DNA from: a virus
Taxonomy: Duplodnaviria; Heunggongvirae; Uroviricota; Caudoviricetes
IMG/VR virus record: IMGVR_UViG_2859799533_000010
Length of the DNA stretch: 46,158 nt
Reading direction: 5' to 3' (one strand)
Position numbers: made by a program. Positions 35,401 to 38,400 of this stretch are shown here, one piece after another. Each line of letters starts with the position of its first letter. The first letter of the stretch is position 1.

Positions 35401-38400
35401 GGAAGCCGGATTACTGGCATCAACAGGAAGTACAGGCGACTCGTATGACAACGCGATGGCGGAGAGCATCAATGGTCTTTACAAAGCGGAGGTAATACAC
35501 CGTAAGAGCTGGAAAAACCGTGCAGAAGTGGAACTGGCCACACTCACGTGGGTGGACTGGTATAACAATCGACGATTGCTGGAAAGGCTGGGCCATACTC
35601 CTCCGGCAGAAGCAGAAAAAGCTTATTATGCTTCCATCGGAAACGATGATCTGGCAGCCTGAGTTCACAGATAAAACACTCTCCAGGAAACCCGGGGCGG
35701 TTCAGCAGTTCAAAACCAATACGCCCGCGAATAAAAGCAATATGATCTGCATCTTCCGGCCACCACACTTCGCTGGTGGCAGCTTTGATCAGGAAAACAT
35801 AGCGCCCGCCCTTATCACGCATGGCACTGGCATGCTTCATGATGTAACGCATGCCGGTGATGTATTGCCCCTCATGCTGACTGGCGCGGCTGTATGGGGG
35901 ATTTCCAAAGGCAGCACCTTTAAGCTCCGCAAGGCGTTCTGACCAGTCATGCGCCAGCGCGTTGTCTTCCGCCGTGTAATACGCAGCGCATTTGGCGTTA
36001 TCACCGTCAGTGAACAGATCCAGAACAAACGGACCAAACAGGGTGTTAATTCCCCAGAAAATGTTGTCCGGCGTGCGCCACTGATCGCCCACTTCCTTCA
36101 GTTCATGGGCTGGTTTGTTCCGCAGTTCCACCAGCTCCTGGCAATATTTATTACTCATTAAGCCCCCACGTAATTCCCTGACAGATACCACTCATCACCC
36201 GATACAGCGCGCTTGCTGCTTTTCCGTAAACACTGCTCACGACGCGCCAGAAAATTGTTTCGTTCTGGCTGGGAGTGGCTTTCACGGAATGCCGCCATCC
36301 ACACCGTTGCAGCACGACGGTATAAGCCCCTGGACTCCAGTTCTTCAGCCTGGCGGGTCAGGCATAAAATCTCCCGCGGGTCGTTAGTGCCGACATAGAA
36401 ATTGCGCACAGGTCTGGTTTCACGAACTGGTTGCCGTTCCGCCTCCGGCGATATCTTTATCTGGCGCGGAAAATGTCTGCGTGTATCCCCTTCACAACGG
36501 TGAGCCACACGCCCACTCTGACGTAACTTGCTTGCTGACTGCAGAACGCGCTGCCGTGAGTAACCTGCAAAAGCATCCGCAATGTCTCCGGAAGTACACC
36601 CCGGATGGGCTTCAATGAATTTCTGAACTTCATTCAAAAGACTCATGATCACCCCCTGAATCCTGCCGGGATCTGGCTGTAGTCCACGTTGTCGTAACTG
36701 GCTTTGAAGTACGGGTCCTCACGTCTGGCTGCAGATACCGCAGGAACTTCCCAGGATTCTTCGAAATGACGATCCGGACCAAAGAACGTGACAGCCTGTT
36801 TCACAAATTGTGTGCCGCTGTTACCCATCGCAGATACCCAGCCCGCATAGCGTTTCACACCTTCCAGCATGGTTTCGGGGTTTACCCCCTCATTCAAACG
36901 GGCTTTCCAGACTTTGAAAGCTGCAGATTTTGAATTGCCACCAGTACGTTTGGGATATGCCAGCCATGCCTGCTCAAACTCCGGAGAGTATTCCGGTCGG
37001 TTTGAACGAACTCGCACAGACTCATCAGCAGATGCACCAACAGCTATTGGTTCATTGACTGGTTCTTTGACTGGTTCAAAAGAGTGACTGGTTCTGGGTG
37101 AATCTCCTGCACTACCCCCTAGTGCAACTCCTGCACTACCTGGTGAATTTGCTGCACCAGATAGTGAATTATTTGCACTACCCCCTAGTGAATCTCCTGC
37201 ACCATCCAGATGAAGGAGATAGATATTACTTGAGTTACCTTTTTCACCTTTCCGGGTGACTTTTTTTACCAGCCCGGACTCACAAAGGGCCGCAATATGA
37301 TTCATCACAGAACGTTTGCTAATCTCGCACTGGTCAGCAATATGCTGGTAGCTGGGCCAGCACTCACCCTGATCGCTGGCATTATCAGCCAGCTTGATCA
37401 GAACCAGTTTTCGCAATGGATTACCCACTCGAATTTTCATCGCTTTAACCATCAGCTCCATACTCATGCTGCACCTCCGAGATGCTTCATGTTTTTTCCG
37501 GAGCGAAAGGCTATAAGCGGCATACTGACGCGGTAATTACGGCCCAGCGGTTCACAAATCACCTTCTGACATTCACGGTCAACCAGGCTGACACGTAGAA
37601 CATGCCCTGCTGGCGTGGTGTACCACTGCCCAACTGTGGGTGTTGATATTTTTTTACGCTGAAATAAACGGTAAATGTTGAGGAGCAACGGATTAAGCAT
37701 GACGATGCCCTCCGCTGATATTCAGGAGACGGTGAATATGAAAATTAGCCTTATCCGCCAGACGAATACGTTCAGCTTGCAAGTTAAGAAGGGTTTCTAC
37801 CAGAACCTGATGTGCCTGCGGATCCGAAAGAGTTACCTTGCGCAGAGCACGTAGTGCAGTTGTTACATAACTGAGTTTATGTAAGTCTTCATCATTCAGA
37901 CGAGTGAGGGCTGGGACAGTAGCCATGATGGCAGCCTCCTTGATCGGTGAAATACTTCCACCACCGGAAACGCCAATTTCGCTGGTGGTGAACTGAACGG
38001 GGTTGGCGTAACCGGTGATCAAGGAAACCGGCGCATCTTTCGATGCCCCCGCCCAGCCCACCATAACTTTGATGTGAGCAAATGCGGACGATAAAAAAGA
38101 CGCTGGCGCGTCATATATCGCCTTGATCAATTCCAGGACGCCAATCCCGGCCCCCGCTTTATAAGGTGCCTGAACAGTGTAACGTCCCGGAATGGCAGAA
38201 TCAATGTGCTGGTGGTCCTTCACACTCAACAAAATCACGCTTGAATTTCCACAAAGGACTAAAGCACTCATGCGGGTAGTCTTTGCGAAGATAGATAACG
38301 CGCTGTGTTTCTGGCTCCCAACGAATAACATGAACATAAAGTCCTCTTCCGTCACGAAACCAGCGGTTAAGTTCCTGCACAACTCGCCCCCCACAGTCAG

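Follow-up and report, generated by a model that had tools for sequence, protein, structure and literature searches.

Palindromic repeats within an initiator gene and an adjoining conserved block as the probable replication origin of an SfV-like prophage

The DNA analysed here is a stretch of 46,158 bases (IMG/VR virus record IMGVR_UViG_2859799533_000010, Caudoviricetes), referred to in its full length as the window. It contains an open reading frame (ORF) of 272 amino acids at 36649-37467 on the minus strand, a replication initiator gene. Within this gene lie a tandem array of short repeats and, beside it, a conserved block, which together probably form the replication origin. The genes around the initiator are the early region of a lambdoid-style prophage. 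In minus-strand order they are a cI-like S24 repressor gene (39412-40086, itself on the plus strand), a cro-like gene, a CII/CP76 regulator, an Ash-family protein, a 78-residue ORF, the initiator, a 164-residue winged-helix and PerC protein, a Dam methylase apparently cut by IS629, a LexA-DNA-binding-domain protein, RusA, KilA-N, DUF968/HNH proteins and the antiterminator Q, with an integrase at the window's far end. Over the segment 36100-37750 there is 96-97% identity to Shigella phage SfV, with its orf39 “replication protein”, and the segment is equally near many Shiga toxin (Stx) phages of the Stx2c and Stx2a types, mEp460, 2H10 and others. The phage Stx2a_WGPS2 (AP012537.1) has 97% DNA identity to the segment and is likewise associated with IS629; it represents the “Eru6” replication type of Fagerlund et al. 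2022 (PMC8951638), to which, judged by this identity, the initiator gene corresponds. The “Eru2” type was also considered for the window and was ruled out, as Eru2 has the DnaB-like Eru2B.

The product of the ORF matches Pfam HTH_36 (PF13730) over residues 17-67 with an E value of 1.8e-11 and 44.1 bits against a cut-off of 25, and a weak DnaD_N match is present in its N-terminus. Moreover, the PHROG family phrog_270, “replication initiation protein”, is matched at 4e-88. On these profile matches the gene is identified as a replication initiator. From the N-terminus, its product consists of a winged-helix domain, the linker that the putative origin encodes, a C-terminal domain that is small and helical, and a flexible tail; the coordinates of these and the other features are collected in Table 1. 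A preliminary description of this DNA had drawn an analogy with lambda O. The layout, with repeats following the DNA-binding domain, stands, but membership in the lambda O family is ruled out: PF04492 (Phage_rep_O), which lambda O itself matches at 6e-36, has no match in the initiator at E<=0.01, and the profile of the N-terminal domain aligned to lambda O with an hhalign probability of 5%. A PDB sequence search with the whole initiator returned only chance matches to the low-complexity linker. The C-terminal domain has no Pfam match, and a large protein search with it gave mostly fragments of close relatives. Its AlphaFold2 model, which is of low confidence and based on a shallow alignment (predicted local distance difference test score of 55), displays four helices followed by a disordered tail, and a Foldseek comparison of the model with the PDB gave nothing below E=3.

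Table 1. Features of the initiator gene and of the gene downstream of it, in window coordinates.
Feature	Position	Strand	Description
N-terminal DNA-binding domain	37204..37467	-	Residues 1-88; recognition helix SKRSVMNHIAAL, residues 50-61
Least stable 30-bp duplex window of the gene	37213..37242	-	AAAGGTAACTCAAGTAATATCTATCTCCTT; 5' side of the array
Unit 1 (proposed iteron)	37186..37204	-	TGGTGCAGGAGATTCACTA
Unit 2	37162..37180	-	TAGTGCAAATAATTCACTA
Unit 3	37141..37159	-	TGGTGCAGCAAATTCACCA
Unit 4	37120..37138	-	TAGTGCAGGAGTTGCACTA; perfect 7-5-7 palindrome
Unit 5	37096..37114	-	TAGTGCAGGAGATTCACCC; abuts the conserved block
Conserved block	37048..37095	-	AGAACCAGTCACTCTTTTGAACCAGTCAAAGAACCAGTCAATGAACCA; three full GAACCAGTCA direct repeats and one partial
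C-terminal domain	36720..37020	-	About residues 150-249; predicted helical; no known family
C-terminal tail SQIPAGFRG	36652..36678	-	8/9 residues identical to the extreme C-terminus of E. coli DnaT, SQIPPGFRG
Downstream gene	36158..36652	-	164 residues; Pfam PerC 8.9e-10; PHROG “transcriptional activator” 8e-76

Tandem Repeats Finder reported an array at 37098-37202 with a period of 24, 4.6 copies and a score of 84, together with a second array of period 12 at 37048-37078. The pattern GTGMANNNNNTKCAC has five matches in the window, all of them inside 37098-37202, where 0.26 would be expected by chance, and no shuffle out of 100 reached five. The repeats are genuine, well in excess of chance, and lie on the coding strand of the gene, where they encode the linker peptide GAGDSLGGSANNSLSGAANSPGSAGVALGGSAGDSP. 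The preliminary description of five tandem repeats was right in count, coordinates and coding content. Its core, “CTGCACTACC...AGTG”, is in a different register, since it spans the junction of two neighbouring units. Similarly, the array is tandem as described, yet its units are palindromic dimer-type sites rather than simple direct repeats. According to a position matrix of 247 units from related genes, the full unit is TRGTGMA-N5-TKCACYA, a 19-bp (base pair) imperfect inverted repeat in which the GTG and CAC cores are invariant. The inner part, GTGMA-N5-TKCAC, is found in five units at 37096-37204 and nowhere else in the window, promoters included. The units begin directly after the N-terminal domain, which ends at about residue 88, take up codons 89-124 and are spaced 24, 21, 21 and 24 bp apart. 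A sub-threshold microRNA match, due to the palindromes, was the only result from Rfam; single-strand folding of the array and block displayed nothing unusual (z -1.33), and no promoter-like site was found inside the initiator gene.

Three sets of homologues were compared: 14 phage homologues of the N-terminal domain with 30-70% identity, 80 near-identical viral contigs, and 80 diverse genome loci with 68-86% identity from Pseudomonas, Enterobacterales, Aeromonas, Shewanella, Marinomonas, Vibrionaceae and others. Overall, the comparison covers about 90 homologues from Gammaproteobacteria and their phages. The preliminary description had pointed to an absence of the repeats from homologous initiators as the result that would count against it. 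Instead, a tandem array occupies the same position of the gene in almost all homologues examined (the 14 phages and nearly all of the 80 diverse genomes), with a period of 15-24 bp; the exceptions are two homologues with a single unit and a few that were not resolved. The period is 23 bp in mEp554 and 17 bp in LESphi3. Of the 192 intervals between units in 54 distinct GTGMA-N5-TKCAC arrays, 181 measure 21-24 bp, and every array (54/54) closes with an interval of 24 bp. Close relatives differ by whole units, having 5, 6 or 7 through 21-bp duplications of unit 4. In 35 of the 54 arrays one unit lies in a shifted frame, with spacings of 23 and 22 bp, and the same DNA unit is consequently read within one gene as SAGxSP at one place and as VQQIHQ at another.

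Furthermore, one half-site is common to all units of a gene, and this half-site changes with the recognition helix of the initiator. Helices of the form S(K/R)RSV(M/I)NHI are found with GTGCA or GTGAA, SKSAVK(E/A)HI with CTGTGCC, SKSAVR(N/D)HI with CTATGCC, DRSTVRKHI with TGTAGGCC, and SRSTVKSHI with GGGGCAG. The Arg helix “..MRHI” is paired with GTGAC in four separate lineages, namely Erwinia/Izhakiella (L140/L147), Vibrio phage D67 (L004), Psychrobacter phage Y8A (L012) and Aliivibrio (L158/L170/L172). The repeat sequence thus appears to be specific to the DNA-binding domain of its own initiator. Since units persist in shifted frames, half-sites vary together with helices and the spacing is constrained, these comparisons show, as far as alignments can, that it is the DNA of the array and not its peptide that is selected. 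Initiators of the same family were also encountered in a plasmid collection (matches H94-H110), where they are encoded by many non-mobilizable “plasmids” of 28-54 kb from Arsenophonus nasoniae (ten), Klebsiella, Shewanella and Pasteurella. These look like extrachromosomal phage-plasmids using the same type of origin.

Directly 3' of unit 5, the conserved block reads AGAACCAGTCACTCTTTTGAACCAGTCA-AAGAACC..., with a core of 35 nucleotides at 37061-37095. Most of the 80 diverse loci, high-GC (guanine plus cytosine) Pseudomonas included, match a core of 28 nucleotides with 0-3 mismatches, and the Pseudomonas block retains rare codons such as AGA, AGT and TCT. Over 61 non-redundant genes, pairwise identity at the third codon position is 0.95 in the block versus 0.42 in the N-terminal domain, while the amino-acid identities of the two are comparable (0.85 and 0.81). 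The substitutions that do occur in the block are mostly C/T exchanges at first and second codon positions and are non-synonymous (T/I, P/S, and F/S/L/P in a pyrimidine run that is kept). In Shewanella loci an indel moves the first repeat to another frame, giving PEPVT instead of RTSHS, and at least two copies of GAACCAGTCA are kept when indels shift the frame. In the alignments, this pattern indicates a constraint on the nucleic acid. Family homology ends about 35 nucleotides into the block, where differing C-terminal modules start, and the block is the junction to these interchangeable modules. In a nearest-neighbour stability profile it is a local region of low stability over the family (median z +1.9), and in 69% of 77 genes it ranks within the lowest tenth of 30-bp windows by stability. 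It is proposed here as the region of unwinding or helicase loading. The least stable stretch of the window's own gene is located on the opposite side of the array (Table 1) and, according to the model, is an alternative candidate for the first melting site.

The cassette of N-terminal domain, array and block is fused across the family to varied C-terminal modules. The genes that come next are DnaC-like, P-like, DnaB-like or of the primase-helicase type, and the peptide at the extreme C-terminus differs according to the partner. Its joining to these different partners identifies the cassette as the origin-recognition module of replication units. In the window itself, domain searches found no helicase, loader (P-, DnaC- or DnaB-like) or primase gene between cI and Q. 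The downstream gene occupies the position of lambda P, and its product, with a MarR-like winged-helix N-terminus and a PerC/ANR-type C-terminus, is not a helicase loader. The earlier statement that a PerC-like regulator follows the initiator in place of a P/DnaC-like loader is therefore confirmed. In SfII and SfV, a gene of the downstream type follows initiators that have their last 24 residues in common, the remainder of the SfII initiator being different.

The tail of the initiator nearly coincides with that of E. coli DnaT (Table 1), while the remainder of the C-terminal domain in the window has no similarity to DnaT. In E. coli, dnaT lies directly upstream of dnaC, and both GFRG peptides are at the C-terminal end. 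The last 19 residues of DnaT recur in two prophage initiators from Enterobacter, with 13/19 (E 4e-6) and 12/19 (E 2e-7) positions identical, and downstream of each comes a DnaC with about 50% identity to that of E. coli; in two further relatives, ending in IPDGFRG and IPAGFRG, such a DnaC begins within 3 nucleotides. In a scan of 80 viral contigs based on a DnaC alignment, the ORF just before the DnaC homologue ends in GFRG in 79, and 59 of these ORFs have unrelated N-termini. The observation on tail and DnaC draws on the loci L015 (2979-3518), L097, L099, L177, L178 and L181-L260. As the tail lies upstream of DnaC homologues in the manner of dnaT, the association suggests that it is a docking peptide for DnaC or DnaB-DnaC, common to DnaT and phage initiators; the C-terminal 20 residues of DnaT are described as a highly flexible tail (PMC5778457). 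The phage of the window, having no dnaC of its own, would presumably use the host DnaC directly. In Salmonella phage S137 (L005, 2501-3211), and also in L006 and L009, the C-terminal module is similar to DnaT's DNA-binding domain of three helices, with 27% identity over 97 residues (E 2e-5), which accounts for “primosomal protein I” annotations. These resemblances hint that DnaT and the phage initiators share ancestry.

Taken together, the conserved array, the tracking of the half-site by the helix and the frame-independent conservation of DNA support the likely origin of replication put forward in the preliminary description. It is probable, at roughly three chances in four, that the five units are iterons for dimers of the N-terminal winged-helix domain and that, with the GAACCAGTCA block, they constitute the replication origin of this SfV-like/“Eru6” Stx prophage. 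The process can be pictured in four steps. First, upon induction, rightward early transcription from the cro side would express the initiator. Second, initiator dimers would occupy the five sites; as these are about two helical turns apart (21-24 bp), the dimers would sit on roughly one face of the DNA and could wrap it in the manner of the lambda O-some. Third, the strain so produced would melt the DNA either in the adjoining block or in the less stable stretch at the array's opposite end. Finally, the C-terminal domain and tail would bring in the host helicase, most likely through host DnaC-DnaB, because the phage lacks its own loader, and through the tail that copies DnaT.

Several observations weigh against this proposal. 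The preliminary description had proposed a check for an adjacent AT-rich unwinding region, and the outcome was negative: no strongly AT-rich tract lies beside the array, the lowest GC nearby being 42-43%, and the block found in its place has 43% GC. The window's own block is only slightly less stable than the average of the gene. DnaA boxes are at chance level (82 observed, 83 expected), and a look for further known host-factor sites gave none. An array of several units is not kept in every case, for a single unit precedes the conserved block in Salmonella phage SI8 (L009) and in a prophage of a Candidatus Phlomobacter endosymbiont (L144), whose nearest relatives have three to four units; either one dimer site can suffice, or these copies are impaired. 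Helix and array are physically linked, and their association is in part co-inheritance, although the reading-frame result and the repeated pairing of the Arg helix with GTGAC are independent of it. The prophage carries IS629 and may be defective. Binding or origin activity was not found in the literature for any family member, nor was a description of the origin or tail; the SfV genome paper (J Bacteriol 2002), which could mention the repeats, was outside the literature covered.

A wider reading, which is possible but on balance doubtful, combines two parts. In the first, the block is a universal, host-independent element for unwinding or helicase entry that is not AT-rich and is recognised as double- or single-stranded DNA by a conserved part of the initiator family. 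In the second, the tail of about 20 residues ending in IPxGFRG docks DnaC or DnaB-DnaC, and “initiator-solo” phages (SfV and Eru6 Stx phages) hijack the host loader by copying the tail of DnaT.

Alternatively, the units could be binding sites of the initiator that serve in autoregulation, as a transcription roadblock or in copy control, with synthesis starting elsewhere in the phage. Plasmid iterons also work in autorepression and handcuffing, and the array has no adjoining AT-rich unwinding element. Nevertheless, this explanation is improbable. The block conserved at the DNA level is always coupled to the array, on the same side and at the same distance, whatever the host or partner gene; promoters of the window lack the unit pattern, as does all DNA outside the array; and the arrangement agrees point for point with the mapped origin of lambda. 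It is less probable still that the block is mainly a recombination linker, a module boundary at which C-terminal and partner modules are swapped, and not an element for unwinding or loading. The end of homology within the block, and the many C-terminal modules and partner genes joined exactly there, would fit such a boundary. It leaves unexplained, however, the near-identity of the block over hosts whose third-position GC spans 0.31-0.89, the survival of two or more GAACCAGTCA copies despite frame-shifting indels, and the fixed place beside the last unit. The two roles of the block are not mutually exclusive.

It is very unlikely that the repeats are coding sequence only, that is, a slippage-prone, low-complexity Gly/Ser/Ala linker between domains that has no function as DNA. 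The encoded linker looks flexible, it is predicted to be disordered beside the domain, and unit number differs between close relatives as slippage predicts. However, this explanation is largely refuted by the reading-frame analysis, in which one DNA unit gives unrelated peptides in two frames. Periods of 17 and 23 bp, units that are all palindromic with invariant GTG/CAC cores while the peptide varies, and the tracking of the recognition helix by the half-site also contradict it. Equally remote is binding of the units by another phage protein, such as the downstream winged-helix and PerC protein or the upstream Ash-family protein: both neighbours encode DNA-binding or regulatory proteins, but homologues with the same type of array have helicase, P or DnaC genes in place of these neighbours, and the half-site co-varies with the helix of the initiator itself.

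Regarding the remaining genes of the locus, the 78-residue ORF (37464-37700, minus strand; PHROG 1153, 1.5e-40) overlaps the start codon of the initiator by 4 bases, is conserved and also stands before the initiator in close relatives such as SfV. At 34449-35662 and 35544-36191 of the window, an IS629-like element of the IS3 family, with two ORFs, and the Dam methylase gene lie side by side. This gene appears interrupted, as the Dam match breaks off at position 123 of the 169 in the profile; an IS629 interruption of the same type is annotated in a related phage record. Downstream of Q, an IS110-family transposase gene (28433-29452) is located beside a second DNA methylase gene (27111-28172, N6_N4_Mtase).

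The proposed origin would provide a concrete candidate for a common type of Stx phage, found among Stx2a and Stx2c phages of E. coli O157:H7. According to the literature, nothing is known of the replication of non-lambdoid “Eru” Stx phages (PMC8951638), and Stx production accompanies the lytic cycle and the production of phage particles (PMC8044961, PMC8951638). Moreover, the family offers a natural set of matched pairs of initiator helix and half-site, which represents a testable recognition code. The block is a rare case of conservation, in which a DNA element within a coding region is nearly identical from Vibrio to Pseudomonas phages. The association of the tail with DnaC bears on the open question of how DnaT hands over to DnaB-DnaC in the replication restart of E. 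coli. If the docking reading is true, it assigns a function to the flexible C-terminal tail of DnaT and ties phage initiators to the origin of DnaT. Of all the parts, the block and the DnaT-like tail most deserve further study.

Compared with known systems, the “Eru6” unit of Stx2a_WGPS2 is the same module. The study of Fagerlund et al. 2022 classified gene content only, stating that nothing was known of the Eru replication proteins, and unlike the present analysis it describes no origin, repeats or route of helicase recruitment (PMC8951638). With E. coli DnaT the initiator shares eight of the last nine residues, its relatives share the last 19 residues of the flexible tail, and some family members have a domain resembling the C-terminal domain of DnaT; in phages the tail, like dnaT, lies directly upstream of a DnaC homologue. 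In contrast to the initiator, DnaT lacks a domain for sequence-specific DNA binding and works at abandoned forks by way of PriA and PriB (PMC13377028).

The iteron plasmids pPS10, RK2, R6K, F and P1 resemble the present system in having initiator-binding repeats beside an unwinding region with short direct repeats, which is proposed here for the block, and in their winged-helix initiator, although plasmid Rep has two winged-helix domains (WH1-WH2). Plasmid iterons are direct repeats bound by Rep monomers and lie outside rep, usually with DnaA boxes and an AT-rich element. The units described here are instead palindromic and within the gene, and DnaA boxes are not enriched.

The closest likeness is to lambda. 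In both, the origin (here putative) is embedded in the initiator gene, immediately behind the N-terminal DNA-binding domain, and codes for the linker between domains. Residue 115 is the last of the PF04492 domain in lambda O, and the four annotated iterons follow at codons 117-145, with spacings of 20, 24 and 23 bp. Both origins have 4-6 imperfect inverted repeats of 19 bp spaced 20-24 bp, and the lambda iterons have the same length and symmetry as the units here (PMC7466680). Transcription of the early right operon traverses the origin in both, and helicase recruitment falls to the C-terminal part of the initiator, as is predicted here. On the other hand, no sequence relationship is detectable, HTH_36 standing here where lambda has PF04492. 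The half-site is GTGCA rather than TCCCTC, the 43% GC GAACCAGTCA block takes the place of the AT-rich tract of about 40 bp, and the winged-helix and PerC gene directly downstream of the initiator stands where lambda has P. What sets the phage apart from lambda is the different protein family, the conserved block that is not AT-rich and the lack of a loader gene of its own. To judge from these comparisons, this is a lambda-like arrangement that is built from a different protein family, one found in many bacterial viruses.

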